DNA of 64,000 nt, taken from positions 1 through 64,000 of the forward strand of contig JBFLGF010000093.1 of the NCBI GenBank assembly GCA_050230475.1, in the 5' to 3' direction. This document shows, in pieces, positions 3,377 through 43,339 of this stretch. The notes beneath the pieces were generated by a model. It was not told the origin of the DNA, searched no databases, and worked only from the letters and a program-made list of their open reading frames with translations. Position numbers and translations under genes: made by a program. The DNA comes from Ancylonema sp. (taxonomy: Eukaryota). The first letter of the stretch is position 1, and each line of letters opens with the position of its first letter.

Positions 3377-5643
3377 GGGACCACAAACTTTATGCGAAAG
3401 CATCAAAGTGTAAGTTCGCCTAGTCCGAGATGTATTTTTTCGGTCACATTATTTCGAAGGACGGCATCAAGGTCGACCCCAAGAAAATGAAATCGGTCCA
3501 AGATTGGCCGGTCCCGACAACCTCACCGAGCTACGGGGATTCCTTGGGATGGCATCGTACTATCGACGATTCATCGACAAGTTTCTACAACAACTCCGTG
3601 GCGTTGGCTGAGCTTCTCCATAAGGACGATTCATTTGTGTGGACGGAGGTTCATCAAAGGGACTTCGAAAGGCTCAAAGAATACCTTTCGTCTGAAAGGA
3701 TTTGTCACTTAAACAACGGCAGCGCACAAGTTTAATGCTTTACAATAACGACAAACAACTGTACGTAAAGCAACAGCGATTCGGTATGGTTGTGAAATGT
3801 TAATCGGAAAGCTTTCTCGTCGGGATAATGTACCCGGCGAGCGTACAACGATACAATGATTACTAATCATTTTCCATACCGACGTTCGAAACTATTGACC
3901 GCCGCACATTCTAAGAGTGCCAACGCACACACGTCTACGGCAACTTGCCGGACTCAACTGTCACCACACAATCTAGCCAATGTCGTGGTGACACAGACTA
4001 GCAACATACAACGACTACTAGAAAGGTCACGTCCGTACAAATGTGGACGTGCCAAAAGCGGACAGATACCGGGTGTAGCATACCCGGCTCCGTATCACAA
4101 TAGACACGTAGGCAATTATTGGACTAGGCAAACAAGATAGTGTAAGTGCCTATCCAAATAAATTCCTAACATCGTCCTCGCCATGCCTCGCCGTAGCCGA
4201 TCCTCACCTCCTATTTGGCTTATGGTGACCGACGCCTCGGACAAGGCAATAGCCGGCGTCCTCTTCCAAGACCAAAGCAAAGGTGTCCAACTAGCGCCTT
4301 CGAGTCTCGGAAGTTCAAGGCGGCGGACATCAAGTACGCCGTCCGTGAAAAGGAAAGACAAGCCATTATCTATTGCCTCAAAATTTGGAAATGTATGGAC
4401 CATAATTCCATTACATACCTTGAGATCCAAGCCTCCTTGAGTCTCCGAAGCTCGATGAATGGAATTTCTTCAAGAATCCAAACCCAACCTCACCATCGAG
4501 TACAAGCCGGGGAAAATCAACGTAGCGGATCCTTCTCTAGACGCCGGGACCTCATGCTCGGAAGCCATAGTGCCGTAGTCGTTGACCAAGCCTCAAACGA
4601 TCGGTTGAGCGATGCCTACTTAGAGGAAAAAAAGCTATTTGGCCGTCTCCGAGGGTAACGACGCTCACACCTTGAGAGAGGGAATATCGTTTCACCCGGA
4701 CAATTCTAGCCGAGACGATCGCCATCCCTCATGATAGTGATCCACTCAAGTTGATTATGGGGGAGTGCTATGATAAACCCCTTGGCAGAAACTTCGGTTC
4801 GGACAAGACAACGGAGCGGGTGCGCCGTGCTTACCATTGGATGGGAATGGACCGGTCTATCCGAGCCTACGTCCGGTCATGTGAGTAGTGCCAATGGAAC
4901 AAACCGTCCTTGGAAAGGCCCGGGGGATTGCTCCAACCATTACCTAGCCCGAATGAGCCTTGGGAAAGGGTCTCGTACGACTTCATCACCAAACTCCCAA
5001 CGACATTACATGGTCACGACACCATTTTGGTGTTTGTTGACATATTTCAAAAAATGGCTAACTTGATTCCCATGACAGAGAAAGCAACCACCGAACAAGT
5101 GACCGAATTGTTCTTTTATCATGTGGTTCGCGATCACGGATTTCCATTAACTTGATCGCGATAAGTGATCGCGATAAGCGTTTCACCGCCAAGTTTTGGC
5201 AAGCCCTCTTTCATACAACCGGAACTCGCCTGAACCTTTCGACGTTGTTATACTCCCATACGGAGTATAACGGAGCGGATGAGCCGAACCCTCGGGAAGA
5301 GCCTCCAGTCTTACGTTCTTCCGCACCACCGAGATTGCGACCAACATCTCTTTCCTATTGAGATGGCGTACACTGATAGTATGAACTCATCGATCCGGAA
5401 AACACCATACTTCTTAAATCATGGACCACATCCATTGATGTTGCACCAAATTGAAAGACTTGTACCCGGATCGGTGCCTCGGGCAAATAACGTCCTCGCC
5501 AACTTACGGACGGCCTTGGATCGAACCAAGGGACGACCGAGCTAAGGCAAGGCAAAAAGACAACGCGGACAAGTCGAGGAAATATCTTCCCTTCCAAGTC
5601 GGAGACTTGGTAAGGTCAAGCAATGCGAGTCTGCCAGCATACG
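3377..5643 (+). pseudogene. pol: Ty3/gypsy G2 pol remnant (RT C-terminus, RNase H, integrase)
   Basis: FFGHIISKDGIKVDPKK, VTDASDKAIAGVL, GLLQPLP..WERVSYDFITKLP, ISDRDKRF; many frameshifts. Confidence 0.9.
3693..4171 (-). repeat. Solo copia LTR, family B (TG...CA), TSD TCGTC
   Basis: TCGTC at 3688-3692 and 4172-4176; interrupts G2 at ..KEYLSS|.. Confidence 0.92.
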
Positions 5644-6624
5644 TGTCATGCCGCTAGAGATCTTTAGAAAGTAATAATTTTTTAATCGACTTTTTAATAG
5701 CAATTTTGGTAATTGTCGATTTTTGATCGTTATGTCGAACTCTGTCGTCATATGAGTTTCGATCAGTCAGGCGTTTGATTTTATATTTTTTTTATACTCA
5801 GTGAGTCTAGAAAAGTCGAAGTACCACTTTTCAGACTTTGATTCAGAGTATTTTGTCGTATCGACGAGTTAGAAGATTCCTCTTGCGCGCCGAGTTAATT
5901 TCAGTCACCGCGCCTGGCTAGTAAGCTGCCGCACGTGTAAAATCTAGAACTCCAGAATAGACAGTCGAGATTAGCTGTCTAGTTGATATTTGTTCTCAAC
6001 CTTAGATCAAGGTATGATCTAGAATACTCCGCGTGCGAAAAGCCGCGTCGATTGTACTAAAGCAAAAAGTCGCTTTCTGAACTGTCAGCTTCTGCTGTCA
6101 GTTTACGCTGTCTAAATCTCAACAAACTCTTTTGCAATCGTCATCTTGTTGCAATCTCCGTGAAGTCGTGTATTCTGAAATCGTTTACTATCGCTATCAA
6201 GTGTGCCGTTTTGCCTTTGATATTCCCTTTGATTTCTTGCAAGCTTCGCGTCGCTTCATTCAACCGTAAGTTTATGTGAAATTACTTGCTTGCTTGTGCT
6301 TGCTGCCGTATCTCACGTAAATGAAAAGCCGTGTACCGTTTTGCATACGCATCGTGTGAAATTCTGCCGTAGTTAGAATTATCGTTACCCTTGCAATATT
6401 GTGACCTTTGCAAGTCATTGATTGCCAGCCGTTTTGCTGGCGTCAGAAATCGTTACAAGTTTGCTGCACCGTTTCGTGCAAGCTCAGCCAGACAATTCAC
6501 CCTTTGAATTGTCTGCACCCATTACTCAATTCGTGAATTGTTCATTCAGCGCAACGCGTGAACTATCGTGACCATATTCGTGTGCGTATTTTGAAGCAAC
6601 CAATCATCAATCATTCTGCAACCC
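5644..6624 (+). repeat. LTR-like repeat Y, 3'-truncated
   Basis: Starts TGTCATGCCG; near-identical reverse-complement copy at about 24537-25499; non-coding. Confidence 0.7.
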
Positions 6625-6902
6625 CGATCTGCCTTCGCATTATATGATGGCACCACGTCAATCCCCCAGAGTCGTAGCTATTGTAGACAAGGAAGATTAG
6701 AAGAAGGAGAGAAAGAAAAATTGTGCAAGTTGTTGTCGATATTAGCACCCCCATGAATTCGGAAAACCAAAGCTCACGTACTGACGGTGAAGAACAACAG
6801 ACTTGAACTCGGTATCCTTCACCCACTAGAGATCCCGACACTCCTATTTACCAAGATGCTGAGGCAGTACCCGGGGAGTATCCTACTCCTCACCTTGAAA
6901 TA

Positions 6903-7633
6903 TTGTTGGAAATTGTTGCACGAGAAGGAGAAGACTATGGTCGACGACAGGGCTACTGTACAAAAATGCCTGATTCATTCGAACCACATTTTTATTTGCA
7001 ACTTGAACCCGGTTCTACCAGTTTGCATCACATGAACGACTCAATTGTGCCACCACCCTTACCTCTGGAAAAGGCTCAAATTCACCATAATCCTCTTCAT
7101 GACATTTTGATGCAGCAACGAGCCATGGTCCAAGGAACAGAGTCAACACTTCAAGAGGTAGCCGATCTGGTCAACATCATGCAAGATCTTGCGAACGCAC
7201 GTACCACCAATCCTGCCTTTCTCAAGGAACTAGCACGCTTACCCGCTCACTACAACCGATTAGCGAAGCATTACGGCATCATCATGCTTCTCAAAAAACG
7301 TGGTGTACTCCTCGTGGGAGACGTGAAACCAGTGGAGAATGTTTTGGATACTAGCGCCAAAGAAACCATGATTGGTGCCAACCTCACCAAACTCCTTCAA
7401 CTCACTCCAGCAGACCTGCACCCCGGAGCACCCTACATCACGGCGTCAGGAAAAATAGAGCTCAGTTTGGGAAGCACTAAGGAGAAAATCCCAATCACCA
7501 TCGGAGAGGGCACGGCTCACCCTTGCACTGTGCATCTCCACCTTCATCTTTCACCATCCACGGAGTTCGACATCATTTTGGGGAACTCGTTCCTATGCCC
7601 TATGGGGGGATACCCGGAACCCTGGACCGAACT
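6903..7633 (+). CDS. Element X1 piece 1: N-terminal region plus retropepsin-like aspartic protease, interrupted by G1
   Basis: VLDTSAKETMIG ... FDIILGNSFL; homologous to the protease at about 62900-63438. Confidence 0.8.
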
Positions 7634-16469: not shown

Positions 16470-16480
16470 GTCGGAACGAG

Positions 16481-18139: not shown

Positions 18140-18140
18140 A

Positions 18141-23851: not shown

Positions 23852-24301
23852 CCAATCCGCCAATATCATCGGCGAAGAAAACTACAAAAGTCATGTTTTC
23901 CAGATTTTTCCAAAATCTGTCAATTTCTTCAACTTTGTGAGATTTCGTCGACACGCTATCTGCCGACTCCATCTGGCACGTCACGTTTATGTTGTTGGAC
24001 GTTTATCTACTTGGTACGCCATGGTCGCAACCTTCTTGACGACGCGTACCTTCGAGAAGTGAATAGTGCCCCGAGATTCTTCGATGGGAGGTCGTATGAG
24101 GTGCCAGATGGAGTCGTCAGACGGCCTGTCGACGACATCTCTCAAAATCAAAGAAATCGACAGATTTTGGAAAAAATATGCTAAACATGACTTTTTGTAT
24201 TTTTATTAGTCGATGAAAATGACGGATGATACTTGATGACTTGGCTACTTGTCTCGAGGAGCAGCATCAAGATTGGGCATCGGGTCATCATCTAGATCTC
24301 A
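23852..24301 (-). repeat. Element X-type LTR copy with a long internal inverted repeat, truncated at an inversion breakpoint
   Basis: Starts TGAGATC on the minus strand like 25706; arms about 23855-23979 and 24101-24227 are reverse complements. Confidence 0.65.
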
Positions 24302-25499
24302 CTTAGAGTAGTTGGTGTAGGTTGAGCCCCTACTGACAACACAAGAATGTAATTCAAGCGTTGTATGTGACTAATCAACGAAGTTTGCAGTAGCTACTAC
24401 TCGCCGAAAGCTAAGTATTGGAAGGTCTAGTAAAACAATACTGAGGTTAATCAAGAATCGCTAATCACATCACTTCACAATATGCGACAACTACTGGTGA
24501 TGGGATTCAAGGCAAATAGTTATAGAATTTATACAAGGGTTGCAGAATGATCGATGATTGGTTGCTTTAAAATACGCACACGAATATGGTCACGATAAAT
24601 CAATCGTTGCGGTGAATGAACGATTCACGAATTCAGTAACGGGTGCAGACAATTCAAAGGGTGAATTGTCTGGCTGAGCTTGCACGAAACGGTGCAGCGG
24701 ACTTGTAACGATATCCGACATCAGCAAAACGGCTGGCAATCAACGACTTGCAAAGGTCACGATATTGCAAGGGTAACGATGATTTTGAATACTACAGAAT
24801 TTCACACGATGCGTATGCAAAACGGCACACGGCTTTTCAGTTACTTGAGATGCGGCAGCAAGCACAAGCAAGCAAGTAATTTCACATAAACTTACGGTTG
24901 AATGAAGCGACGCGAAGCTTGCAAGAAATCAAAGGGAATATCAAAGGAAAAACGGCACACTTGATAGCGATAGTAAACGGTTTCAGAATACACGACTTCA
25001 CGGAGGTTGCAACAAGATGACGATTGCAAAAGAGTTAGTTGAAATTCAGACAGCGTAAACTTACAACGGAAGCTGACAGTTTATAAAGTGACTTTTTGCT
25101 TCAGTACAATCGACGCGGAGTAATCTTGATCTAAGGCTGAAAATAAATATCGACTAGACAGCTAATCTCGACTGTCTATTATGGAGATCTGAATTTTACA
25201 CGTGCGGCAACTTACTAGCCAGGCTGGCTCACTGAAATTAACTCGGTGCGCAGTAGGAATCTTCTAACTCGTCGATACGACAAAATACTCTGAATCAAAG
25301 TCTAAAAAGTGGTACACCGACTTTTCTACACTCAGGGAGTATACATTTTTTATAAAATCAATCGTCTGACTGATCAAAACTCATATGACGACAGAGTTCG
25401 ATATAACGATAAAAAATCGACAATCACAAAAATTGCTATTTTTCAAGCGGATCGACAGTAAAAAGTCTTTACTTTCTAACAATCTCTAGCGGCATGACA
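24302..25499 (-). repeat. LTR-like repeat Y, second and longer copy
   Basis: Reverse complement of 5644-6624 plus about 235 extra bp. Confidence 0.7.
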
Positions 25500-25718
25500 G
25501 TTGACGCGCCAGATGGAGTCGGCAGACAACCTGCCGACGAAATCTTTCAAAATTAAAGAAATCGAGAAATTTTGGAAAAAATCTACAAAATATGACTTTT
25601 TGTATTTTTCTTCGTCGATGAAAATGACGGATAATACTTGATGACTTGGCTGCTTGTCTGGATGAGTAGCATCAGGATTGGTCTTCGGGTCATCACCTGG
25701 ATCTCACTCCCCCCCCCC
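25500..25718 (-). repeat. Element X1 PPT (25707-25718) and start of the 3' LTR (25706-25500)
   Basis: The minus strand reads G-run-AG followed by TGAGATCC; direct repeat of 24101-24301. Confidence 0.75.
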
Positions 25719-25963
25719 AGCTACGAAAGCTCTGCGTCGGAGGCTGGGACACACGGACAGATGATGTGCAACAAGGTTAGGATATATTATAGAATGCTGG
25801 GTTTCTTTGGAGTCTCTGTCTTGACGTAGGTTTTATGATAAGTAGTTAACACTCGTCTAGGTTGGTTAGGGAGTCCGAATTGCATTGGTTTGCAATAATA
25901 TGCATGATGAGTTTGGCCTGAGTCATAATGGAGTTCGACGTCATGCAAGGGTTTGGGGAATTT

Positions 25964-26260
25964 TTATGAAAGGAAGTTCGGGTTGTTGACAGGTGGTGAG
26001 GCATCGGTGACCAAAGCTAGGTTGATCTCGTCTGGGGATGCTCGCCAAGGTGTGCAACGTGAAGTTTCCTCATAAAGTGGTGGTGAGTGGAAAATCAAAT
26101 CGGGAATCTGTGACAAAAATTCGATGAGTTCTTTTTCGACTTGAAGTAGTTTGGTTGCATTTGCGGTGAGGGACTCTGATTGAGTGATGATTGGCTGAGA
26201 GGAAGGGTAAATTTTTGTAGAAGAAGTTGTGGATCGTGTTGAACTAGACTCGCTAGTAGA
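25964..26260 (-). CDS. Element X1 piece 4: C-terminal Ser/Thr-rich and helical tail
   Basis: Joins in frame to 35810 (..KTPSAST|SESSSTRST..) through TSD TCTAC. Confidence 0.65.
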   Translation of the reverse strand, partial: STSESSSTRSTTSSTKIYPSSQPIITQSESLTANATKLLQVEKELIEFLSQIPDLIFHSPPLYEETSRCTPWRASPDEINLALVTDASPPVNNPNFLS

Positions 26261-29200
26261 TATAAGCTTTTGAGTGATTAGACGTGCCGGAATAATTAGG
26301 TGGGCGACAGAACGAACCGTACGCAAAAGGATCTCTATCACTGATGATCAACGAGACACGAGTTGCGTGTGTGGTACGAATTATTATTGTGATTGCATCG
26401 GGGATGGTCATACCCGATGCGCTTTACAGATTCTTGTGTGCCGACGGTCGGCACAATTGACCGTCGGCCTATCATTGACTGAGACAGCTCTTCTACATGT
26501 CAACGGCACATGCCGGACCTTTCTGACACGACTAAACAAGCCAGTCACGACGCTTCAACAAATAACGTCTCTAAGCGTCGGAAACATGTCAGGTGCCCGG
26601 GCACACCCGGGCACAAACTTGCCCGGCCCCGCATACAGGCACATCTAGAATATTGCTCCCGGTTGGAGTAACCGGCTGGACTAGCACGCATAATATATGG
26701 CTATCCAAAATATTCTAACACACCCCCTCGGATGCCATATGCCTAAAGTTGGCATAGATGCAGTCATCAAAAAGAGTACCCAAGTCATTCCAAAACATGG
26801 CAGAACCATCACATAACATATAAAACAGTTTTGGTCTTCCCTAGGCATACAAGCGTGCTAGGGGATTCTATCGATAAATGCCAGCCGTTCGGAAACGATC
26901 GGAAGACGATCGGAAGCCGATCGGATCGGAGGAACTCCTCCAGAAGAACGATCGCTCCAGATCCTTAGTCGTTTTTCGGTTTTCGGGCCGAAGCCCTGCA
27001 CATACAAACAAATGCCACAAAGTTAGGCGAAAAACAAAAAAACTTATGAAGAAAATATTTTTGATTATATCTTAACTTTTTCAACTTCACGATTCTGAAA
27101 CTTCACACTTTCCAGTCAGAAAAATCTCAAAAACAACATAACTTCAAAATTACCCCAGTCTCCTATCAGCACCAACTTTTGACACAAGTGCAACAATGAT
27201 TAGGACATACATACGAAAATTCAGAACAAACTGACAAGTTTAAAGTTGAGCAGATTCACACTTTCTGATTTTAAAGTGTCCTTCAGCGATTTCAAGTGCC
27301 TTTTCAAGGTATTAAGGTGAAAGTGTGACTTAGCTGGAGGAGCTGAAGGTGGTGTACCCTCCCCATTACTTCTGCCTGAAAAGAAACATAACAACACACC
27401 CCCTGCCAACATGCATGGCATTCGAAACCTTCGATCATAAAAATAAAAGAAAACTACTGACACCCCCAGTTCAGTACCCCCAGTTCAGTATAACCAAACC
27501 TAGACTTTTGCTGTGTCTGTCCAGTAAACTTGGGGGTAGAGCTTTAGTTAGCATATCTGTCTGCTGGTTGATTTGCGCCTGCAAGATACACATGTTTCCC
27601 CGTGCTGTGGCATTCCCGTACCCAGTGATATACCACATTAAAATGTTTTGCTTTCTGTCTTTGCACAGGATTCTGGATCATGGAGAGAGCTGAGGGTTTT
27701 GAATCAGTGTGGATTGTGATTTGGTGTGGGAATTTGAGTTCTTTCAAGAGAGACTTCTAGATAACAGCATTTCTTTAGACACACTACAGGCAGCAATATA
27801 CTCAGCCTCAGCAGTGCTCTGTGCAACAGTTGACTGTTTCTGTACTTCCAACTCAGTGCTGTCCCCCCAACCGTGGTTACCCATCCCAGTGACCTTGACT
27901 TCCCCTGTCATGAACTGTTCCATGATGCATCGCAGTAACCCTTTACTTCAAATGTGTCTTTTCCCACAAACGTCAGTCCGTGGTTGACAGTGACAGTCCC
28001 TTTAAGTATCTGAATAGTTGATGTAATGCCCTTATGTGTGCGACCCCAGGATTTCCCATGTGTTTAGCCACAGTACCCCAAGTGCATACCATGTCCAGTC
28101 TGGTTTGTTTCATGGCATATATGAGTGATCCCACTTTCCCACGAAAGTCTGTTTCTGGTATTTCTTCAGGGGTAGGGGGAAGAGTTGGTTCATCATATTG
28201 TGTAAATTGAGTTCCGGGGGCGAGGGGGAGTTTGGTTGGATTACACTCATGCATCCCATAGCGTTCGAGCACTCCCCTTAAGAAACCTGACTGTCCCAGT
28301 GTGTCTTCTCTGTCTATCCCTCTTCACTTCCACCCCCCAGGAATATGGGTTAGGGGACCCAGATCCTTGACTTTTAACTTTTTACCCATATCTTCTTTAA
28401 AATTTTTGACGACCATTGCGTTAGGACCTGTGATCACCTTATCATCTACATGTATGCCCAGTATGATTCTGCTGTCTGCTTCCCCCCTCATATATATACA
28501 TTGTCCATTACGCATTGTGTAAACACTTCAGATATCATAAACTTTCTGAACATCTCTTGCCACACGTGGCTACTCTGCTTTAGACCGTATAAAGCCCCCT
28601 TAAGTCGTAAGACCTTTCCCTCAGCACCCCCATTGATATACATACGTGGTGGTATTTTCATGTAAACTTCTTCCTCCAGACGTCCATGGGAACGCTGTGA
28701 TTACGTCCATCTGTTCCAGTTCCCAGTCATATTGGTTTGCTATAGAGAGGAGTAGGGTGATAGATGTACTGTCGATTACTGGTGCAAATACTTCATTATA
28801 GTCAATACCCTCTTGTTGTAAGAACCCCTGTGCGACCAGTCTGACTTTATATCTTTCAATATCCCCCTGTGGTGTTGTTTTGACCTTAAACACATATCTG
28901 CACCCCACAGCCTTTTTACCTGGAGGAAGCACACACACCTCAAAGGTGTTGAACGTCTCCAGGGCGCAGCGAGCTCGTCCACAATGGCCCTGTCCCACTG
29001 GTCCCAGTCTGGCCATCATCGCATGGTTGAGGGTGAGTGGCTCGGAGGAAGTTCTGTTAGTTGCTGCACGCGTAGCCATCCACAGGACCGTTGAAGCCAG
29101 TGTAGAAACTGTTTTGGGCTCCCACTCAGTCGCTGAGTAGTTGGCGTGAGCTGCGTCATCAAACTCCTCCCCATCACATCACATGAGATCCCCATACGGC

Positions 29201-32200
29201 AAAGATTGGCTCGCCTTCTAGCCATCACCCGATCAGCTACGCTGCCAGGCTCCCCCACTTCTGGGTTCGCACCCCCTCCTTGCACCTCCTCCTCCCCCTG
29301 CATCTCCACCTCCTGCGTTGTTGATCCCTGACAGGCTGTCAGACAGCACAATCGTGGCGTTAGAGACCTCAGCAGCTTGTGGCTGGAAGTTGTCGTGCGG
29401 ATAGTCGTTGGCAGCTGCTGGCTCAGGGACTGCTGGTTCTGCTGGTGCTGGGATTGGTTGGAGAAATCGGTTGCAGAACTGCTGCTGCTGGCATGTTGGG
29501 GTGGACTGCTGCTGCTGGCACCACTGCTCTGCTGCTGCTGGCATGTTGGGGTGGACTGCTGCTGCTGGTACAACTGCTGCAGCTGGTTCATCTTCAGGGT
29601 CGGGGAAAAGGTAGAAAAAGTGTTTTTTCGCTGCCTCGTGAATCTGGGGAGCTCTCCCCCCCATCAGCTTCGGGTACCCCGGCACCTCCTCAAAGAACCT
29701 CACGTCCATGCGTCTATGGGGATCGAAAACATTGTAGCCTGCACTCCCCGCAGCCATCCCCAGAAACACACCAAAGCAAGTACGAGGGGCAAACTTGTCC
29801 CCTTGACTGTTCTTTTCCCCCCCAACCTTCAGATATTGAACCAGACAGAAATTATGACTTTTATTAACTTATTGACTGAACTGTCATGTTCTTTCCCTCC
29901 CAGACCTCAATTGGAATTTTCCCAGAAAGCGACTTAGTGGGTGTTCTGTTCCTTAACCAGTTTGCATGTAATAAAGCCACATCCTAATAAGACTTCGGTA
30001 GACCTGACCAGATAAATATGCATCGCATTTTTTCTGTCAATGTTCTATTCAGTCTTTCACAGATTCCGTTTTGTTCAGGACTATATGCTTCTGTGGTTTG
30101 CTTGTCAATAATACTCCCCCCACCGTAGTTTATCCAGTCCTGAGACATATACTCCCCTCCCTTATCTGTCCGAATAGACTGTAGGGGCAAACCTGACTAT
30201 ACCTCGAGCAATTGTATAGTGACTCTTGCTCGGTTCAGTGCTTCATCCTTTGTTTTTAACAAGCTGACAAATGACAGACGTGTGGATACCTCTATCCCTG
30301 TGTGAGCATATGTAAATCCTCCGTTAGCTGACTTGACAGACAGTGGTCCAATGAGATCCAGGTGAATGCGACCCATCTTGGGGCATGTCCCCAGATCCGC
30401 ACTGACCTTAGCATGACTGAGCTGAACCATCTTCCCCTGACAACAAACCTGACATCCCTGTACTTCAGTCAATTCCCCCTGACTTAACTCTGGGATGTCA
30501 CCACGTCGGGCGAAATCTGACATCACATCAGAACTGGGGTGACCCAGTTTGTGATGCCAGACCAGGCCTGTGGACAAATTTGCTGTAGTATCATGAGATC
30601 CAGGCATAACGATTGTGGCAGCAAGCAGAGTCAGATCACTAGGCTGCTGCAACACATCAGCCCATTTCACATTTCCCTTGTTTAATTCAGGACCCGTGGG
30701 CAGCTGTAGAAAGCTCAGCCCACCTCTTCTGACGAGGCACGATGTCGACACGAGGGTGCAGGCAAAGGTTGGGCCGTGGATCGAGCTGAGTGGCTGCACA
30801 AAGAAAGCGTCGCCATTCCTCACTCGGATGTGCACGAAACCAGTGCCCTCCACCTTGTGTGACGAGCCGTCAGCAGTGGTGATGAAGCCTGCTGCGGCTC
30901 AGGGTAGGTGTGTACTCCACAAAATGTTCACGTGCCGTGAATATGTGGTCAATAGCACCTGATCAGGATCAGGGAGTCTGAGTGAGGACCAGCAGACATT
31001 GCCGGGCTACATCGAACGAGAAAGCACCGAAAGCTAAATAATCCACATTAGCGTTGAAGGGTTTGTCAGCAAGCAGCAAGTCTAGCCCTCTGGGTTCATT
31101 AGAGCCATGTCAGATGTTCTTTTTCTGCAATGTTCAATTGTTTCTGCAATGTTCAATTGTGTGACCGACAAAGTTGCAATATCTGCACTTCTGCCTCCCC
31201 CCTGAACTTCCCTGAGTAGCGTGCGCAACATTTCCAGCTGTTGGTGATGGCGCAGGGCACTGAGAAGCTCGGTGGCCTGCCTGGTGGCACCTGTGACATT
31301 TCCAAGGCCCCGCATGGCCTCCGCCAGATGGGTGAAGGGCAGTAATTTGTGGCAACCGAAGCATTCGACGCCTGCAGCGTCTCTGCGACCAGCTCCAGTC
31401 GCACCACCAGATCTGCTGCTACCTCCAGCTCCATTCCCCCCCCCAGGTCCACCATAATGCGCTTGGTGTCCTCCGGGCAGCGCCCCCCTTTTTCGATCGT
31501 TCAGCTCTTTCCGCACGTCGTCGCGAAGCAGCGCACTCACGATGTGTGGAATCGTGAAGAGGTGTGGCGACGACTCGGACCATGGCATCAGCGTTGAAAC
31601 CATCGGACTGTAATGCGTGTTCAACGAATTCAGCACGTTGATCGCCTGCTTCGTCGGGATACTGGCGCCCCCAAATTCTTAAGGTCCTGAGTGCAGCTGC
31701 TGCAGACGCTTGACGTACACGTTGTGGAGGTCCTCTGCCTCCGTCTGAATGATAGCGCTTAGCAATGCCTCCGTATTTGCGATCTCGATCGCACCCGGCA
31801 CCTGGTAGAATGTCCGCAGGGCATCCCACATTCCGGCAGCTGTCGTGCAGTCCGTGACGTGCGTCAGCAGCTCCGATGGCCCCAGGTGCTTCACAATGTA
31901 CGACATAACAGCCAGATTATCCTCGTCCCATTTCTCCAGCTCTAGCAGCTGCTGGGAAATGCTGTCTGACAATACTTCGACATCCACGTCGATCCCCCTG
32001 GCGGCAAATTGCAGCTCGTTATCAGGTGTCAATGGAAGGATAACGTCTGGGCGACACTTTCGCGGCAAACTGTCCCAATTCATTACCAAACGGTGCAGTT
32101 TCTTGTCCGCCAGCCCATACTTGACCTTGAAGGCCCATCCTGTATAATCAGCTCCAGTAAATTGAGGGATTTGCGACCTATCCGACATTATGGCAGCTAT

Positions 32201-32937
32201 TGTGTAGGATTTTTACAAAATTTCTCGCTCAGCTCGAGTCTCAGTGCCAATTTCCTGCACTGCAGCACTCAGCTCAAAAACTTGGCAGCGCAATATATCA
32301 GCAGAATTACGTGCAGACCTTAACAACCCCGAATATATTTGCGCTCACTGGCAGAATATACCGTTCACAGAGATGATTACCGCAGCAGCGAAATCAATCG
32401 CGTGGAGCCTTTAGTTTTTAACCTACACGGCGTCTGAACTAGACCGCACGTGGGCCCATAACCTATCCTATAAGCTTTTGATTGAGTGATTAGACTTGCC
32501 GGAGGACGGATTATTTAGGTGGGCGACAAAAAACGAACCGTACGCAAAAGGATCTCTATCACTGATGATCAACGAGAGAGTCGTTGCGTGTGTGGTACGA
32601 ATTAATTATTGTGATTGCATCGGGGATGGTAATACCCGATGCGCTTTACAGATTGTTGCGTGCCGACGGTCGGCACAATTGACCGTCGGCCTATCTTGAC
32701 CGTCGGCCTATCATTGACTGACAGCTCTTCTACATGTCAACGGCACATGCCGGACATTTCTGACACGACTAACCTAGCCAGTCACGACGCTTCGCCCAAA
32801 TAACGTCTCTAAGCGTCGGATACATGTCAGGGGCCCGGGCACAAACTTGCCCGGCCCCGCATACAGGCACATCTAGAATATTGCTCCCGGTACTGGACTA
32901 GCAAGCATAACATATGGCTATCCAAAATATTCTAACA
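26261..32937 (-). mobile_element. Copia A2, full length, degenerate gag-pol (32188 to about 27500)
   Basis: 3' LTR 26261-26720; PPT 26721-26730; 5' LTR 32469-32937; PBS 32451-32463; all copia domains present. Confidence 0.95.
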
Positions 32938-35810
32938 AAGTTAACCCCCTAAATTCATGCTATTGGAAGACAACATCGATGACACAACAGTGGCACTACT
33001 TGCAGACATTGCTGCATCACCCGTTGCATCGATGCCACCACCTTCCACACCCGTTACCACCACACCATCGACAGACGGAGGTATACAACTGCCACCCATC
33101 GATGCTTCGCAAACCATGCCAGCACCAAGGTCCATGTACTTATTTGCTAACGTCAACGCAGGTTCGGTACCCCGGGACACGGGGCGTGCCAGATCTGAAG
33201 AGGGTTCACTGCGAGCACCCTTGTCAACCATAAACCCTGGAAAAGGACAACAGCAAAACCATCGACAGGAGCAGCTCAACCTTGATTTGCCGAACTTCAT
33301 GGATTTGGTCGACCACACCAACATCGATCGATATGTGGACACCATGCTTCAGTGGTTCAATCCAGACACCAGACTCACCCCAATCGAGCAACTCTACATT
33401 CTCATGACAAGTCCATTTCATGCACCTCACAACTTGACCCTGCCATCGATCGAGGCGATTCGAGCCAGGGCCAATTCGGATCGTTTGAAATAGGAACAAG
33501 AAGATAAGGACAAACTCACCATTGAACTTCGTGCATTACTCAAGAAAGAGTTGGAGGATGCAGCCATTGTTGAACGTGTACAACGGGTAGCCGATATTCT
33601 GCCTTTGGGAGAAGTCACCACAGCCAATGTCGACGACGCACTGTGGGCGATCAACCAAGTCAAAATTGATTCTTTCAACACACACCTGTAGCAGACTCAT
33701 GCCACCATCATCAGACGAGCTGCCGAATTAAAGGCGAAGGAGGAAGCAGAAGCAGCACGCGTGGCGGAAAAGAAGAAGGGAAAGGAGAAGGCCGACGACA
33801 TTGTGAAACCGGAACTTTTTGACTGTGACTCCGACGACAACCTTAAGAATGTTCCACCGGCGGAATATCAGCATCGTACCACACTCACCATTGGGGAGAG
33901 GACACCAATTTGGAGCCCGCGAGCGAAGTTGCAGCGTCCCATTCATAGACAAAGGACAATTCCCCTAGTCTCTATTCCGGCGGCACCGCAACCCACCCCG
34001 GTGTACCGGACCGTCCCCCTTCTTCCCTCAACATCGACGGCTCAACCCAAGGCGCAACCTTTAGTGCCCCCTCTCATCCCCATCCTTTCCCCACAGCACA
34101 ATGCAGCCCAATTCGCCCAAGACCATGCCGCAGTCAACGCCATGGCGACGGCTGCACAACGAACGACACCTGGCACTTCGTGACTACGACAACGTTCGTG
34201 ATCCTCGCGATGGGGAGGACATCGACAGGCGTCGTGCACGCTATCGCCAGAAGTTTGCATTTTGGAACCCCAGGGATCAGCACCTCAGTATCCCTGGCTA
34301 CCCCGACCTCATCACCCAACGGGTCTTGCCTGCCACATTTCCACCCCAACAGCTAGCCGAGGAAACCCGGAGGATCTACACACCCCGGAGTGTGAACGCC
34401 GTCGCCACCATACGCGAAGGGCAACTCACCATGGGTCAACGATTGCTGTGACAGGGCAACCACAAAATCATGCAGGATTACACCCTTTCCCCACCTCGAC
34501 TTCATTGGAACGGACGAAAATTTTAAATTACCAAATCCATGTCTGCCAGCATTGCACCCCTTCACCCATCCATCCTCGGCAAAGGCGTGCACATCTATGA
34601 ACCATTCGGAGGACCAGACATCAGCATTTCTACCTTTATTCGGAATGTGGCGACTTTGTGGGCACCTACACTACTCAGGTGGAGAGCAAAGCGGACGAGT
34701 AGGCGTTGTACTTCGCCCTGCAAAAAGCACAACGACAATTCCTTGGACAACTTCCCGACAGCGCGATCGCAGGATGCCGCAGTCGATTGGGAAGCAACAT
34801 CATCGAAGAAACCGCAAAACCTGCATTCAGGCGCCTCATCAACGAGCATGGTCAAATCGACATTGTGGGGGAGTATTGGAACAGGGAGACGGAGATTGCC
34901 TATAGTCCACTCAGGGGGGGCTTCGATCACCGCGTGTACCCTGTCCTGGCATTGATCAAAGTCCTGCAGAACCACTCGGACATCAAGGATCACCCTCCCC
35001 GTTGCATTCCATTCACCCACGGGTTTTTGGATTCACCACCGTGGGTAACTGAGATGTATCCCTTGGTAACCACCTTTTTGGGGCATCCAGCAGTCATCGA
35101 GGCCACCGCGGTAAACTCCAACAACCGTCGCTTAACCCTTGTGTGGCAAAACCACATGCCACCCAGACTCCCCGAGGCTTGCTTGCCTGCCGACACCCAA
35201 TGTTGCAAACTCAACGACCTGTTGGAACCCGGCCATCTACCAGCAACAGTAGTCAACAGTGACGTGCAACCGCCAATCGTGAACAGTGCTGGACAACCCC
35301 GACGTGCATTTCCACCCATCACACCCTACCAAGATGGCGTCGACTACAACGTGGATCCTGCCATAGGTCACTACGGCGAGGGCATGGTGTATGAACAACA
35401 ATCTGGCACCTATATCACACCCTCATCTTATGATCTGGAACGCGCCATGGGCTTCACCCCGGGAGCTACAGCCGGACCCGTGGGCATGATCCGCACCGCC
35501 GCTCAACGTCGCAGCACCCTTGGCCTCGCATTAGATCGCCACATCACCCATTGGCTGGCATCCATCATCATGGCCACCTACAACCCGTACGGCCAACGCC
35601 TCACCTCAACTATCAGGTATTCCCCACCATCCTCGTTGAGGCAAAGGGCCACCTACCCCAAAGTTCCTATGCATCCTGTCACCACCCCAGTGCATCGAAA
35701 CCAAAGAAAGAACATAAAAAGAAGAAATCATCGATTTCCTTCATTCCTCCACCATTGGCAACCCCACCACCTGTTAATGATGAAATCTGGAAAACACCAA
35801 GTGCATCTAC
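32938..35810 (+). mobile_element. Element X1 piece 3 (inverted segment): Pro/Thr-rich and charged helical regions plus DNMT-like domain
   Basis: Mostly open + frame with few stops or shifts; its ends carry TSDs swapped between A2 and A3. Confidence 0.75.
34539..35583 (+). pseudogene. C5-cytosine DNA methyltransferase-like domain, catalytic motifs degenerate
   Basis: Motif I-like GVHIYEPFGG; IV position DIVGEYWNRE; VI position PPRCIPFTHG; VIII-like NRRLTLVWQN; IX/X ERAMGFTPGATA..QRRSTLGLALD..WL; one frameshift near 34645 and a TAG at 34700. Confidence 0.75.
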
Positions 35811-38800
35811 TGTTAGAATATTTTGGATAGCCATATGTTATGCGTGCTAGTCCAGTTGTGACCGGTTACTCTAACCGGGAGCAATATTCTAGATGTGCCT
35901 GTAGTCGGGGCCGGGCAAGTTTGTGCCCGGGCACCTGACATGTTTCCGACGCTTAGAGACGTTATTTGGTTGAAGCGTAGTGACTGGCTTGTTTAGTCGT
36001 GTCAGAAATGTCCGGCATGTGCCGTTGACATGTAGAAGAGCTGTCAGTCAATGATAGGCCGACGGTCAATTGTGCCGACCGTCGGCACACAACAATCTGT
36101 AAAGCGCATCGGGTATTACCATCCCCGATGCAATCACAATAATAATTAATTCGATCCACACACGCAACTCCTGTCTCGTTGATCCTCAGTGAAAGAGATC
36201 CTTTTGCGTACGGTTCGTTTTGTCGCCCACCTAATTATTCCGGCAAGTCCACTCAAAAGCTTATAGGTTATGGGCCCACGTGCGGTCTAGTTAAGACGCC
36301 GTGTTGGTTAAAAACTAAAGGCTCCACGCGATTTCGCTGCGGTAATCTCTGTGAACGGTATATTCTGCCAAGCGCAAATATACTCGTAGTTGTAAGGTCT
36401 GCACGTAATTCTGATATTGCGCTGCAAGTTTTTGAGCTGAGTGCTGCAGTGCAGGAATTGCACTGAGAGAGAACTCGAGCTGAGCGAGAAATTTTGTAAA
36501 AGTCCTACACAATAGCTGCCATAATGTCGGATAGGTCGAAAATCCCTCAAATTACTGGAGCTGATTATACAGGATGGGCCTTCAAGGTCAAGGGCTGGCG
36601 GACAAGAAACTGCACCGTTTGGTAATGGATTGGGACAGTTTGGCCGTTTGCCGCGAAAGTGTCGCCCTGATAACGAGCTGCAATTTGCCGCCAGGTTAGC
36701 TGCAATTCGCCGCCAGGGGGATCGACGTGGATGTCGAAGTGTTGGTCAGACAGCAGCAGATTTCCCAGCAGCTGCTGGAGCTGGAGAAATGGGACGAGGA
36801 TAATCTGATCTGGCTGCTCTGTCGTATATTGTGAAGCACCTGGGGCCTTCGGAGCTGACGCACGTCACGGACTGCACGACAGCTGCCGGAATGTGGGATG
36901 CCCTGCGGACAGTAGGTGCAGGGTGCGATCGAGATCGCAAATACGGAAGCACTGCTGAGCGCGATCATTCAGACGGAGGCAGAGGACCTCAACGTGTACG
37001 TGAAGCGTCTGCAGCAGCTGCATCAGGACCTTAAGAATCTGGGGGCGCCAGTATCTCCGACAAAGCAGGCGATCAACCTGCTGAATTCGTTAAACAACAC
37101 GCATTACACTCCAATGGTCTCAACGCTGATGCCATGGTCCGAGTCGTCGCCACACCTCTTCACGATTCCACACATCGTGAGTGCGCTTCGCGACGACGAG
37201 CGGAAAGAGCTGAACGATCGAAAAAGGGGGGCGCTGCCCGGAGGACACCAAGCGCATTATGGTGGACCTGGGGGGGGAAACGGAGCTGGAGGCAGCAGCA
37301 GATCTGGTGGTGCGACTGGAGCTGGTCGCAGAGACGCTGCAGGCGTCGAATGCTTCGGCTGCCACAAATTCAAATTCGGGCACATCAGAGCGAATTCACC
37401 AGCATCTGGCGGAGGCCATGCGGGGCCATGGAAATGTCACAGGTGCCACCAGGCAGGCCACCGAGCTGCTCAGTGCCCTTGCGCCATCACCAGCAGCTGG
37501 AAATGTTGCGCACGCTACTCAGGGAAGTCAGGGGGGAGGCAGAAGTGCAGATGCAACATTGTAGGGCACACAATTGAACATTGTAGAAAAAGAACATCTG
37601 ACATGGCTCTAATGAACACCCAGAAGCTGCTAGGAGGGCTGATGCACAAGCTAGACTTGCTCGCTTTGCTGACAAACCCTTCAACGCTAATGTGGATTTA
37701 GCTTTCGGTGCTTCTTTCTCGTTCGCGTTCGATGTTGCCCGGGCAATGTCTGCTGGTCCTCACTCAGACTCCCTGATCTCAGGTGCTACATACCACATTT
37801 TCACGGCACGTGAACATTTTGTGGAGTACACACCTACCCTGAGCACTGCTGACGGCTCGTCACACAAGGTGGAGGGCACTGGTTTCGTGCACATCCGAGT
37901 GAGGAATGGCGACGCTTTCTTTGTGCAGCCACTTTGCTCGATCAACGTCCCAACCTTTGCCTGCACCCTCGTGTCGACATCGTGCCTCGTCAGAAGAGGT
38001 GGGCTGAGCTTTCAACAGCTGCCCACGGGTCCTGAATTAAACAAGGGAAATGTGAAATGGGCTGATGTGTGCAGCAGCCTAGTGGTCTGACTTGCTCGCT
38101 GCCACAATCGTCATGCCTGGATCTCATGATACTACAGCAAATTTGTCCACAGGCATGGTCTGGCATCACAAACTGGGTCACCCCAGTTCTGATGTATGTC
38201 AGATTTCGCCAGACGTGGTGACATCCCAGAGTTAAGTCAGGGAGAATTAACTGAAGTAAAGGGATGTCAGGTTTGTTGTCAGGGGAAGATGGATTCAACT
38301 CAGTCATGCTAAGGTCAGTCCGGATCTGGGGACATGCCCCAAGATGGGTCGCATCCCACCCTGGATCTCATTGGACCACTGTCTGTCAGGTCAGGTAACG
38401 GAGGATTTACATATGCTCAGACAGGGATAGAGGTATCCACACGTCTGTCATTTGTCAGCTTGTTAAAAACAAAGGATGAAGCACTGAACCGAGCAAAAGT
38501 CACTATACAATTGCTCGAGGTCCAGTCAGGTCTGCCCCTACAGTCTATACGGACAGACAAGGGAGGGGAGTATGTGTCTCAGGACTGGATAAACTACTGT
38601 GGGGGGAAGGGTATTGACAAGCAAACCACAGAAGCATATAGTCCTGAACAAAACGGAATCTGTGAAAGACTGAATAGAACATTGACAGAAAAAATGCGAT
38701 GCATCTTAATCTGGTCAGGTCTACCGAAGTCTTATTGGGATGTGGCATTGTTGTTATTACATGCAAATTGGTTGAGGAACAGAACACCCACTAAGTCACT

Positions 38801-41800
38801 TTCTGGGAAAATTCCAATTGAGGTCTGGGAGGGGAATCTGGGAGGGGAAGAACCTGACACTTAATAAAAGTCATAATTTCGGGTGTCTGGTCCAATATCT
38901 GAAGGTTGGGGGGGAAAAGAACAGTCAAGGGGACAAGTTTAGTTTGCCCCTCGTCTGGGGATGGCTGCGGGGAGTGCAGGCTACAATGTTTTCGACCCCC
39001 ATAGAGTGGGGGTGATATCACGCATGGACGTGCGGTTCTTCGAGGAGGTGCCGGGGTACCCGAAGCTCATGGGGGGGAGAGCTCCCCAGGTTTAGGAGGC
39101 AGCAGAAAAACACTTTTTCTACCTTTTCCCCGACCCTCAAGATGAACCAGCTGCAGCAGTTGTGCCAGCAGCAGCAGTCCACCCCAACATGCCAGCAGCA
39201 GCAGTCCACCCCACCCACGCAGCAGTTTTGCAACCGATGCCAGCAGTTCTGCAGCCAATCCCAGCACCAGCAGAACCAGCAGTCCCTGAGACAGCAGCTG
39301 CCATCGACTATCCGCACGACAACTTCAAGCCACAAGCTACTGAGGTCCCTAACGCCACGATTGTGTTGTCTGACAGCCAGTCAGGGATCAACAACGCAGG
39401 AGGTGGAGATGCAGTGCAAGGAGGGGGTGCGAACCCAGGAGTGGGGGAGCCTGGCAGCGTAGCTGATCGGGTGATGGCTAGAAGGCGAGCCAACTTTGCC
39501 GAGTATGGGGATCTCATGGATGTGATGGGGAGGAGTTTCGATGACGCAGCTCACGCCAACTACTCAGCGACTGAGTGGGAGCCCAGCAGTTTCTACACTG
39601 CTTCAACGGTCCTGTGGATCCGGGCTACGGTGCGTAGCACTAACAGCAACTCCTCCGAGCCACTCACCTAACCATGCGTGAGAGGCCAGACTGGGACCAG
39701 GGGACAGGTCATTGTGGAAGAGCTCGGCAGCCCTGGAGACTTCACTCCTTTGAGGTGTGTGTGCTTCCTCCAGGTAAAAAGGCTGTGGGGTGCACATATG
39801 TGTTTAAGGTCAAAACAACACCACAGGGGGATATTGAAAGATATAAAGTCAGACTGGTCGCACAGGGATTCTTACAGCAAGAGGGTATTGACTATAATGA
39901 AGTATTTGCACCAGTAATCGACAGTACATCTATCACCCTACTCTCTCTATAGCAAACCAATATGACTGGGAACTGGAACAGATGGACGTAATCACAGCGT
40001 TCCTGCATGGACGTCTGGAAGAAGAAGAAGTTTACATGAAAATACCACCACGTATGTATATCAATGGGGGTGAGGGAAAGATCTTACGACTGAAGGGAGC
40101 TTTATACGGTCTAAAGCAGAGTATGGCAGGAAATGTTCAGAAAATAAAATTTATGATATCTGAAGGGTTTAAACAGTGCGTAATGAACACATGTATAGAT
40201 ATGAGGGGGGAAGCAGACAGCAGAATCATACTGGGCATACATGTAGATGATCAGGTGATCACAGGTCCTAACGCAATGGTCGTCAAAACTTTTAAAGAAG
40301 ATATGGGTAAAAAGTTCATTCAAAGTTAAGGATCTGGGTTCCCTAACCCATATCCTGGGGGTGGAAGTGAAGAGGGATAGACAGAGAAGACGCTCACACT
40401 GGGACAGTCAGGATTCTTAAGGGGAGTGTTTGAACGCTATGGGATGCATGAGTGTAATCCAACCAAACTCCCACTCGCCCCTGGAACTCAATTCACACAG
40501 AATGATGAACCAACTCTTCCCCCTACCCCTGAAGAAATAACCGACTTTCGAGGGAAAGTGGGATCTCTCATATATGCCATGAAACAAAACCAGACTGGAC
40601 ATCGGGTATGCACTTGGGGTACTGGCAAAACACATGGGAAATCCTGGGGTCGCACACATAAGGGCGTTACATCAACTATTTAGATACCTTAAAGGGACTG
40701 TGAACCACGGACTTGACGTTTGTGAAAGACAGCTTTGAAGTAAAGGGTTACTGCGATGCATCATGGAACAGTTGCAGATGACAGGGAAGTCAGTCACAGG
40801 ATGGGTAACCACGGTTGGGGGGACAGCACTGAGTTGGAAGTCGCAGAAACAGTCCACTGTTGCACAGAGCACTGCTGAGGCTGAATATATCGCTGCCTGT
40901 AGTGTATCTAAAGAGTGCTGTTATCTAAAGTCTCTCTTGAAAGAACTCAAAGTCCCACACCAAATCACAATCCACACTGATTCAACCTCAGCTCTCTCCA
41001 TGATCCAGAATCCTGTGCAAAGACAGAAAGCAAAACATTTTAATGTGGTATATCACTGGGTACGAGAATGCCACAGCACGGGGAGACTACTACTGTGCTA
41101 TATGTGATCTTGCAGGCGCCAATCAACCAGCAGATATGCTCTTCCCCAAGTTTTACTGGACAGACACAGCAAAAGTCTAGGTTTTGGACGGGTATACTGA
41201 AATGGGGGTGTCAGTCTTTTCTTTTATTTTTATGATCGAAGGTTTCGAATGCCATGCATGTTGGCAGGGGGTGTGTTGTTATGTTTCTTGTCATGCAGAA
41301 GTAATGGGGAGGGTACACCAACTTCAGCTCATCCAGCTAAGTCACACTTTCACCTTAATACCTTGAAAAGAACACTTGAGAAAACGCTTGAGGACACTTT
41401 AAAATCAGAAAGTGGTGAATCTGCTCAACTTTAAACTTGTCAGTTTGTTCTGAATTTCCGAATGTATGTTCTAATCATTGTTGCAAAACTTGTGTCAAAA
41501 GTTGGTGCTGATAGGACTGGTAATTTTGAAGTTATGCTGTTTTGAGATTTTTCTGACCTGGAAAGTGTGAAGTTTTCAAGAATCGTGAAGTTGAAAAAGT
41601 TAAGAAATCAAAAATATTTTTTCATAAGTTTTTTTGTTTTTCGCCTAACTTGTGGCATGTGTTTGTATGTGCAGGGCTTCGGCCCGAAAATCGACTAAGG
41701 ATCTGGAGCGATCGACTTCTGGAGTTCCGATCGGCTTCCGATCGTCTTCCGATCGTCTCTTCCGAACGGCTGCATTTATTGATAGAAAAACCCCTAGCAC

Positions 41801-42386
41801 GCTTGTGTGTATGCTAGGGAAGACCAAAACTGTTTTATATGTTATGCAATGGTTCTGCCATGTTTTGGCAATGACTTGGGTACTCCTTTTGATGTCTGCA
41901 TCTATGCCAACTTTAGCATGGCATCCGAAGGGGGTGTGTTAGAATATTTTGGATAGCCATATGTTATGCGTGCTAGTCCAGTTGTGACCGGTTAATCTAA
42001 CCGGGAGCAATATTCTAGATGTGCCTGTATGCGGGGCCGGGCAGTTTGTGCCCGGGCACCTGCCATGTTTCCGACGCTTAGAGACGTTATTTGTTGAAGC
42101 GTCGTGACTGGCTTGTTTAGTCGTGTCAGAATGTCCGGCATGTGCCGTTGACATGTAGAAGAGTGTCAGTCAATGATAGGCCGACGGTCATTGTGCCGAC
42201 CGTCGTCGGGCAACAATCTGTAAAGCGCATCGGGTATTACCATCCCCGATGCAATCACAATAAATATAATAATTCGTTCCACCACACGCAACTCCTGTCT
42301 CGTTGATCACCAGTGAGAGATCCTTTGCGTACGTTCGTTTTGTCGCCCACCTATATTCCGGCAGTCTAATCACTCAAAAGCTTATA
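35811..42386 (+). mobile_element. Copia A3, full length, degenerate gag-pol (36524 to about 41180)
   Basis: 5' LTR 35811-36265; PBS 36266-36278; PPT about 41927-41936; 3' LTR 41937-42386. Confidence 0.95.
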
Positions 42387-43162
42387 AACTAACCCTTGGG
42401 GAACGAGGGTGCTACCGCCGCATGCAATAGGGATGTTGGGAACACGGGTGAGTGAGGGAACGGCCTGCACGAAAATTTCGTGGTGAATATCCGTGTTTGA
42501 CAAAAGTGGTACACGTTGCCTTGCAATGTATACCTGTCGATGTTCGTGGTTGCGGTGGGGTGTCCCGAAAGAAGGGGTCAAATTCTCGACTGAGGGTAGA
42601 TCGAGGTGGTCTTGTATACGGGGAAATGGGTGAAGTCACATTCGATAGACGGGGTGCAGGAGACGACACCGGGGTGGTGAAGTTAGGCCTCGCGCCACGA
42701 GGTGGTGAGTGTGGAGTAGTGGTGACTTGAGTGACCAAGGGTGGTGGAATGGTCAACTCCCGAGGCTCGGTTGGTGTGGGATCGACTAGGGGAATGGGTC
42801 GATGGTGGGAACCACGGTAACATCGTCGTCGTCGAAGACACAATCGTCGTCTGCATCCGTCGATGTTGGGTCCTGACTGCGAAGACCGCGGCGGTTGGTG
42901 TCAGGGATCGGCATCTCGGTATATATTGTATCTGTGCTGTCCAAGTCCCATCTTGGACATTGTGCCTTTTATGACCCGGTTGTGAAGTCGTTGAAAGTAC
43001 AGTCCGGCGACGGTCGTAACAGTTCGATCCAGGAGGATGCGCAATGTGCTTCTTTCGCGCCATGTAGATGGCTGGGGTGCCCTAAGTCTCGTGGATGGAA
43101 AGAGGGCCTCCGGCTAAACAATGTCCGCCTGTCCTGAAAGCGGGTCGATACGTGTACATTTC
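42387..43162 (-). mobile_element. Element X1 piece 2 (protease C-terminus plus Pro/Thr-rich linker)
   Basis: Continues the 7633 ORF as ..PWTE|MYTYRPAF.., matching SWGHRFHYRV in the X2 protease. Confidence 0.7.
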
Positions 43163-43339
43163 TGTAACGGAGTGACGTGCGCGTTTGTGCATTACTCTTG
43201 TCTTTGTCGATAGTTAAGTTTATTATCGATTGCGCCTAAAAGTAGAGTTGCTTATAGAGAGGGACGCCGGCCTCGGGCCTGCGCCCCGCCTAAGTATTAT
43301 CAATACTTGGCGCAATGTTGCGCCAATTAATACTTGTTT
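43163..43339 (+). repeat. G1 5' LTR, part 2 (inverted)
   Basis: Reverse complement of the LTR portion missing after 18570; starts TGTAACGGAG. Confidence 0.9.

Follow-up and report, generated by a model that had tools for sequence, protein, structure and literature searches.

A 64,000-nucleotide window of Ancylonema sp. DNA (assembly GCA_050230475.1, contig JBFLGF010000093.1, positions 1 to 64,000 of the forward strand) holds an old and broken copy of a retroelement that encodes a protease and, at 34539-35590, a domain identified by homology as a retrotransposon-derived, Dnmt3-type cytosine-5 DNA methyltransferase (C5-MTase) fold. The catalytic motifs of the domain are replaced, not only in the window copy but also in sister copies and in three distant families that fall with it into one supported clade, which upholds the original prediction of a family-level pseudo-enzyme over decay of one copy and makes a clade-level pseudo-enzyme of some kind highly probable. 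Our tentative reading, to which we give a probability of about 0.42, is that the dead domain has been retained for binding another protein and would partner an active Dnmt3-type enzyme in the manner of DNMT3L and DRM3.

Replaced catalytic motifs in a methyltransferase-fold domain

The domain and its motifs, including the S-adenosylmethionine (SAM)-binding loop and the target-recognition domain (TRD), all lie on the plus strand:

34539..35590, plus strand: predicted Dnmt3-type C5-MTase-fold domain, catalytic motifs replaced; window copy broken, family stop codon at 35588-35590
34599..34613, plus strand: motif I EPFGG, SAM-binding loop, partly kept (EPFGGS[D/N] in P0140 and P0143)
34877..34888, plus strand: motif IV W-N-R-E, replacing W-[P/E]-C-Q, without the catalytic Cys
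35012..35020, plus strand: motif VI FTH in place of ENV/ENT
35126..35137, plus strand: motif VIII RRLT, first Arg retained, second Arg changed to Thr
35312..35329, plus strand: target-recognition loop, PTLVAY changed to PPITPY with Pro for the conserved Thr, surrounding TRD acidic
35438..35524, plus strand: motifs IX and X (ERAMG 35438-35452 to RSTLG 35510-35524), retained

C5-MTase motifs had been claimed in canonical order at 34539..35583, and all of them were located in that order; comparison with homologues confirmed the mapping of WNRE to motif IV, FTH to motif VI and Thr to the second Arg of motif VIII. In the window copy the domain begins at Met 34539, changes frame near 34627, is interrupted by TAG at 34700-34702 and then remains open to 35590, and the sister proteins P0140 and P0143 run uninterrupted across both lesion sites. 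Besides the motif IV Cys, C5 methylation depends on the Glu of motif VI and the Args of motif VIII. Because this Cys, the Glu and one of the Args are jointly lost, the domain is predicted to be catalytically inactive, without methylation activity; the Cys is described as required for C5 methylation (PMC2965745, in part). The SAM site is eroded to a different extent: the window's family retains FGG and LG-x-[A/S]-x-D but not the motif III Asp, which reads N or R in all derived rows, and P0116 lacks motifs I-II.

The reading frame terminates at a family-specific stop immediately after motif X (35588-35590), which accounts for 98% (X2) and 94% (X1) of summed contig depth. Among the family fragments that cover the C-terminal half, 6/11 terminate at this residue and 0/11 extend past it. 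No PHD/ADD or UBA targeting domain was detected by Pfam in the scanned frames.

Homology and predicted fold

When 1.84 billion representatives were searched by phmmer with the open frame 34703-35590, 123 matched at E<=1e-3, 17 of them at E<=1e-10. The original prediction had proposed HMMER and Foldseek as checks for the DNMT fold. The window frame has no Pfam match, PF00145 included, and no PDB sequence match, whereas a profile built from 52 intact homologues gives it 121 bits and the top PDB match of a profile from the window frame and 59 homologues is DNMT3A (E 3e-16). Pfam is likewise blind to P0143, P0142 and P0116, so domain-based surveys miss these elements. An AlphaFold2 model computed on the homologue alignment (pLDDT 84.5, pTM 0.81) matched DNMT3A by Foldseek (E 1.4e-8, TM 0.58) and by structural alignment (Z 17.9, rmsd 3.3-3.5 over 240 residues). 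The sequence homology to C5-MTases stands independently of this model, and at that level the resemblance is judged to be beyond chance.

Among 45 homologues scanned, PF00145 was detected in 19, and the long proteins are retrotransposon polyproteins that contain protease, reverse transcriptase (RT), RNase H (RH), integrase (IN) and PHD. Two homologues with a named source were seen, both from Closterium. Two domain orders occur among intact homologues, RT-RH-DNMT-IN-PHD and DNMT-RT(-RH-IN), as compared in P0015, P0029, P0061, P0107, P0109 and P0119 versus P0056, P0035 and P0073. P0098 and P0088 combine PF12237 (PCIF1-type) with a C5 methyltransferase, with a PHD finger also present in P0098. A further homologue search gave 11 matches, every one in the derived clade described below. 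A word-based homologue search found no match at 162-518 aa, the ESM Atlas gave no usable match for P0140 or P0143, and JGI metagenome and IMG/VR contigs yielded no related loci with P0136 or P0143 as query.

Catalytic replacement across sister copies and distant families

Sister copies were surveyed in Logan contigs of one sample, restricted to those at least 80% alike to the window. No RNA sample was listed as containing the stretch, an outcome without bearing on expression. A 534-base contig identical to the window copy bar one base has a depth of ~126 in X2, and the summed contig depth across the domain is ~3,500-55,000; the sum itself is no copy number, and together these values suggest a copy number for the family on the order of one hundred. 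In place of the intact Cys that would mark an ordinary active family, the codon of the catalytic Cys reads Arg, Thr (22%) or Lys (15%), and no Cys codon is listed at a share of at least 12%. The Glu that follows the Cys position varies only silently. Individual proteins agree: P0143 reads GGKWNTE at motif IV and YILFTH at motif VI, P0004 reads GGNWKRE at motif IV, and motif VIII is RRST in P0136, P0139 and P0142. P0004, an ENA protein, also joins the reverse strand of repeat B of the element (24226-24318 and 25637-25711) to its DNMT-like region, as might arise from a chimeric contig or from a copy that is nested or rearranged.

The distant relatives P0016 (with P0079), P0025 and P0116 form three families with 25-47% identity between families, and all four proteins share N-[W/Y]-[N/H]-x-E at motif IV; x-T-[H/Q] is found at motif VI in 3/4 of them. 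Over the derived rows, the Cys position is R, K, T or Q (7/7), motif VI is FTH, WTQ, YTH or STQ (five rows covering it), and the second Arg of motif VIII is Thr (4/4 rows covering it). The TRD Thr is Pro in eight family rows and Gln in three rows tentatively placed in the clade. None of these four residues is present in any derived row, whereas the rows outside the clade retain Cys in 66/67, Glu in 80/82, the second Arg in 88/92 and the TRD Thr in 108/111. What the domain has kept is its scaffold, together with a newly conserved signature near the old active site.

In a midpoint-rooted tree of 40 rows, the seven derived rows lie on one side of a branch with support 100/100, with P0005, P0112 and P0048 as their intact neighbours. 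The branch retains a Shimodaira-Hasegawa-like approximate likelihood ratio test (SH-aLRT) value of 99 after the motif IV and VI columns are dropped, and the stem measures 2.0 changes per column with the motif columns and 1.0 without them. The trees took in 33 (all columns) and 31 (motif columns dropped) of the 60 intact rows covering the region. P0117 was left out as a repeat-protein match, and P0002, P0003, P0025 and P0079 were left out of one earlier tree for short alignment; P0032, P0023, P0074 and P0086, whose motif IV is atypical or frameshifted, are outside both trees and inside the residue counts for the other rows. From this placement, the pseudo-enzyme clade probably arose within retrotransposon DNMTs, separately from DNMT3L and DRM3.

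Selection on the family and age of the window copy

Signs of purifying selection on the family come from 33 variant rows listed for 34884-34987, a stretch of 35 codons in collapsed contigs. The 22 variants with a share below 75% comprise 14 synonymous and 8 nonsynonymous changes (24.3 and 80.7 sites), a nonsynonymous-to-synonymous ratio (pN/pS) of ~0.17, and the synonymous excess is significant without (binomial p 6e-5) and with (p 2.5e-3) a strong transition bias. The 11 variants at a share of at least 75% comprise 5 synonymous and 6 nonsynonymous changes, and the near-fixed differences of the window copy in the frame 5 and 13, a ratio of ~0.8 (40 of 718 rows). Near-fixed and segregating variants differ (Fisher p 0.03), which fits a family under selection and a window copy decaying since insertion.

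The window copy is old and broken. Its terminal repeats A1 and A2 differ by a p-distance of 0.094 (88% identity by blastn), and neutral decay at 9.4% divergence predicts ~1.7 new stops per 350 codons. The two lesions of the domain equal this neutral expectation, and five further stops lie in the upstream frames of the element; the argument that only about two lesions betray selection was therefore dropped.

A host element rebuilt through target-site duplications

The domain had been assigned to an ordinary LTR (long terminal repeat) pair. The adjacent LTRs, at 32469-32937 and 35811-36265, are inverted and each is paired with a Copia element, which rules them out; the real element has split direct repeats and was reassembled across insertions and inversions through target-site duplications (TSDs). 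Its parts, in rebuilt order, are:

5640..5643, plus strand: left TSD TACG, lying in an older Gypsy within its integrase/SH3 region
5644..6624, plus strand: terminal repeat A1, starting with TG
6807..7633, plus strand: short pre-protease frame and aspartic protease, interrupted by Gypsy G1 (PF13975/PF13650 below cut-off)
42387..43163, minus strand: continuation beyond the G1 insertion (TSD GAACT/GAAAT), displaced by inversion, without known domain
32938..34538, plus strand: coding-like region 5' of the domain, several stops in the window copy, without known domain
34539..35590, plus strand: domain, as above
35591..35810, plus strand: region past the family stop, interrupted by Copia CopB, without pol similarity
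25718..26260, minus strand: remaining 3' region, joined to 35810 by crosswise TSD TCTAC/GTAGA, without pol similarity
25707..25717, minus strand: purine run G9AG, polypurine-tract-like, immediately before B1
25502..25706, minus strand: repeat B1 (TG..CA), followed by AC and A2
24537..25499, minus strand: repeat A2
24097..24301, minus strand: repeat B2, 3' end of the element (CA), 87% to B1
24093..24096, minus strand: right TSD TACG, past which the older Gypsy continues

The rebuilt order thus reads TACG, A1, protease frame, 43163-42387, 32938-35810, 26260-25718, G9AG, B1, AC, A2, 233 bases, B2, TACG, giving an element of ~7.8 kb, known in this arrangement from one copy, that encodes protease, pseudo-DNMT and stop between repeats ordered A-coding-B-A-B. 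Its protease is homologous to that of DNMT-carrying polyproteins (P0036, E 9e-11), which lends the reassembly independent support. Stops at 34449 and 34524 lie 5' of the domain in the window copy, and the last 60 codons of 32938-34538 resemble the sequence upstream of motif I in P0116, which is fused upstream; in the element the domain may be fused to the protease frame or be translated from Met 34539.

The original description of the element as RT-less holds: tblastn gave no RT, RNase H or integrase match to any internal part (87 for the neighbouring Gypsy pol), and RT is absent from the window copy and, family-wide, from the frame of the domain. Other copies of the element may have a separate pol frame. 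No gag domain was detected in the element, and no primer-binding site was seen behind A1, by eye only and without tRNA comparison. The ends are TG..CA with a 4-bp TSD and a purine run, and the repeats are split. The internal B1/A2 joint (25499-25506, minus strand) reads CA-AC-TG, resembling joined element ends; with the TG..CA ends and the 4-bp TSD, it hints at an integrase cutting at the split-repeat junction.

Proposed role and alternatives

If the dead domain is indeed a protein-binding module, four steps can be envisaged. It would transfer no methyl group, its Cys nucleophile, Glu and one Arg being gone; younger copies would make the protein, which selection would keep; the non-autonomous element would rely on a protease-DNMT-RT-RH-IN helper for RT and integrase; and the domain would pair through its retained scaffold with the active Dnmt3 domain of helper or host, thereby tethering the helper Pol to the parasite or tuning methylation of new cDNA. 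The last step is the least certain. An acidic TRD favours a protein partner over DNA: its net charge is -5 to -7 in 5/5 rows of the window's family, against a median of -1 and a 5th percentile of -6 in 103 intact homologues. The more specific proposal that an RT-less retroelement clade uses a DNMT3L-like pseudo-enzyme with a new pocket to hijack or poison the active Dnmt3 of helper or host is doubtful.

The same acidity bears on the DNA- or chromatin-binding decoy or anti-silencing factor suggested earlier, a dead fold that would sit on element DNA and block host methyltransferases. In its favour, the first Arg of motif VIII is retained, as are the Arg-rich helix preceding motif X and an S-P-x-R loop that follows motif IV, and repeat A is CpG-rich (observed/expected 1.4); yet the residues that position the base are changed, with the TRD Thr and the second Arg lost, and the TRD is acidic, so a decoy is less likely and we consider it improbable. 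Nor is the transition rate at CG or CHG in the repeat pairs of the element below that of neighbouring elements (CG, CHG and CHH contexts compared), a proxy for methylation of low power, as no element of the window has a clear CG transition excess. Somewhat unlikely, too, is a structural passenger or nucleic-acid packaging module, kept for an open, folded polyprotein or for binding element RNA, without any role related to methylation: selection against stops and misfolding would likewise yield pN/pS <1, and the uneven erosion of the SAM site is in keeping with it, but a useless C-terminal 1 kb could be deleted by a non-autonomous element, and yet four families 25-47% identical have all kept it along with a novel signature in common, and the TRD of the window's family is acidic.

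That signature invites the idea of a neofunctionalised enzyme or ligand site in which the clade-conserved Asn, Glu, His and Thr serve new chemistry or a new ligand. A long stem branch is followed by conservation of N-[W/Y]-[N/H]-x-E, S-P, D-H-R (3/4 families) and T-[H/Q], and motifs I and X are partly retained in the window's family; the residue at the Cys position, however, is free to vary, being R, K, T or Q, P0116 has lost its SAM motifs, and we know of no matching catalytic motif, which leaves this quite improbable. A single decayed copy of an ordinary active DNMT-Gypsy family is largely refuted, and we regard it as very improbable: the window copy is indeed old, with its repeats 9.4% apart, 13 nonsynonymous to 5 synonymous near-fixed differences and extra upstream stops, but the replaced motifs are common to sister copies and distant families, and the terminal stop is shared.

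Several observations weigh against the protein-binding module. The predicted fold is partly imposed, because the AlphaFold2 alignment consists mostly of intact enzymes, and a single-sequence model failed (pLDDT 35.7). P0063, P0068 and P0044, assigned to the clade from the C-terminal half only, have TRD charges of -1, -2 and -4, which are not strongly acidic. The distant members are covered as fragments of 95-185 aa, short of the full domain and its surroundings. The selection signal is suggestive, being drawn from 35 codons of collapsed contigs at a chosen share threshold of 0.75, and the protease of the window copy (7347-7355) reads D-T-S where relatives have D-[T/S]-G. The pairing with a binding partner is putative, as is a helper with an intact DNMT; the intact sisters P0005, P0112 and P0048 are not tied to this genome. 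Gag-Gag contacts are normally enough to co-package Pol, and a DNMT hook may be unneeded. The new conserved residues around the old active site would also fit a new ligand or chemistry.

Relation to known systems

DNMT-bearing retrotransposons and their split repeats are already known (PMC5890265; bioRxiv 10.64898/2026.05.21.726589; both in part), as are host pseudo-DNMTs. The closest described element is KnitGypsy-Dnmt3 of Klebsormidium nitens (de Mendoza et al. 2018), which carries a DNMT in Pol with "conserved key functional amino acids" (PMC5890265, in part). Like the window element, it is Gypsy-related, has a Dnmt3-type domain and DIRS-like A-coding-B-A-B repeats (legends of Fig. 4c and 1e, PMC5890265). 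Its domain is under purifying selection (same source, in part); for the family of the window element, the pN/pS estimate from 35 codons of contig variants is suggestive. The window element differs in its replaced catalytic motifs, the stop after motif X, and the absence of RT, RNase H and integrase. SymbioDIRS-Dnmt3 has the same repeat order as KnitGypsy, is catalytically conserved and is active in yeast (PMC5890265, in part), and the cytosine methyltransferase domains of the EpiLTR retrotransposons are described as catalytically conserved (bioRxiv 10.64898/2026.05.21.726589, in part). Both resemble the window element in being retrotransposon-borne, and SymbioDIRS also in repeat order; they differ in having tyrosine recombinase or DAM/chromo domains, other hosts and conserved catalysis. 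Closterium GJP34393.1 (P0010), P0036, P0056 and P0040 have a protease, homologous to that of the window, followed by a DNMT, and P0010 and P0036, like the window element, show no RT in that frame. These polyproteins differ from it in having intact motifs IV, VI and VIII, only 25-30% identity to the window domain, and a linker between protease and DNMT that falls far short of the 2.4 kb in the window element.

On the host side, DRM3 and Dnmt3L lack the Pro-Cys of motif IV and function with an active paralogue (PMC2965745, in part). DNMT3L in mammals and DRM3 in angiosperms are thus likewise conserved Dnmt3-related clades without this Pro-Cys, but they are encoded by host genes, carry PHD/ADD or UBA domains and have a demonstrated role with the active paralogue, whereas the window domain is transposon-borne, retains its TRD at full length together with motifs IX-X, and has a putative partner. 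TR-GAG and LARD elements have ordinary LTR pairs and a protease-bearing frame, without RT, RNase H, integrase or a methyltransferase fold. The window element shares with them terminal repeats, the protease-bearing frame and the lack of RT, RNase H and integrase, and differs in its split repeats, its methyltransferase-fold domain and the absence of a detected gag domain.

In the literature covered, which took in subscription journals and key supplements in part, we found no report of a catalytically replaced, RT-less DNMT clade; tracheophytes are described as lacking such elements (PMC6338049, in part), and the homologues and kinds of transposon in the window would by themselves suggest a bryophyte or streptophyte alga as host. 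Why retrotransposons carry DNMTs is treated as an open question, and the published answer assumes that new cDNA becomes methylated (PMC5890265, Discussion, in part). A fold kept under apparent selection without its catalytic residues would mean that the domain has a second, non-catalytic value, and the derived clade beside its intact sister clade offers a natural mutant series for testing it. On the transposon side, the clade would represent a Dnmt3-related pseudo-enzyme of independent origin, in parallel with DNMT3L and DRM3. If the doubtful proposal that it hijacks or poisons an active Dnmt3 is true, a transposon would encode a regulator of DNA methylation that Pfam does not see.

Flanking insertions and inversions

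The DNMT segment 32938-35810 sits between inverted copies of one very abundant Copia family:

26261..32937, minus strand: Copia insertion CopA, foreign to the element; its 5' LTR adjoins the DNMT segment
35811..42386, plus strand: Copia insertion CopB, foreign to the element, inverted relative to CopA

The TSDs of CopA and CopB match crosswise only (GTAGA/TCTAC; AAGTT versus AACTA with one mismatch) and neither copy has its own TSD, so the segment between them has been inverted. A chromodomain Gypsy has its 5' LTR split by another such inversion, whose ends are Copia copies at 18571 and 43340. The two inversions are nested (18571-43339 and 32938-35810), are bounded by inverted copies of the one Copia family, and may reflect real recombination or an assembly mis-join. 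Copies of this family lie at 26261-32937, 35811-42386, 47868-54543 and 18571-23851, and its LTR has a summed depth of ~2 million, compared with ~125 for a single copy. The copies show 125-155 gap openings per 6.7 kb, and transversions outnumber transitions, which suggests under-polished repeats. The primer site of the family, GGTTATGGGCCC, is of the half-tRNA type. Gypsy G1, with a chromodomain (7634-18569, minus strand), contains pieces of RT, RNase H and integrase, and a Copia-type gag is nested within it at 11537-12626. A 22-bp tandem satellite occupies 59885-60717.

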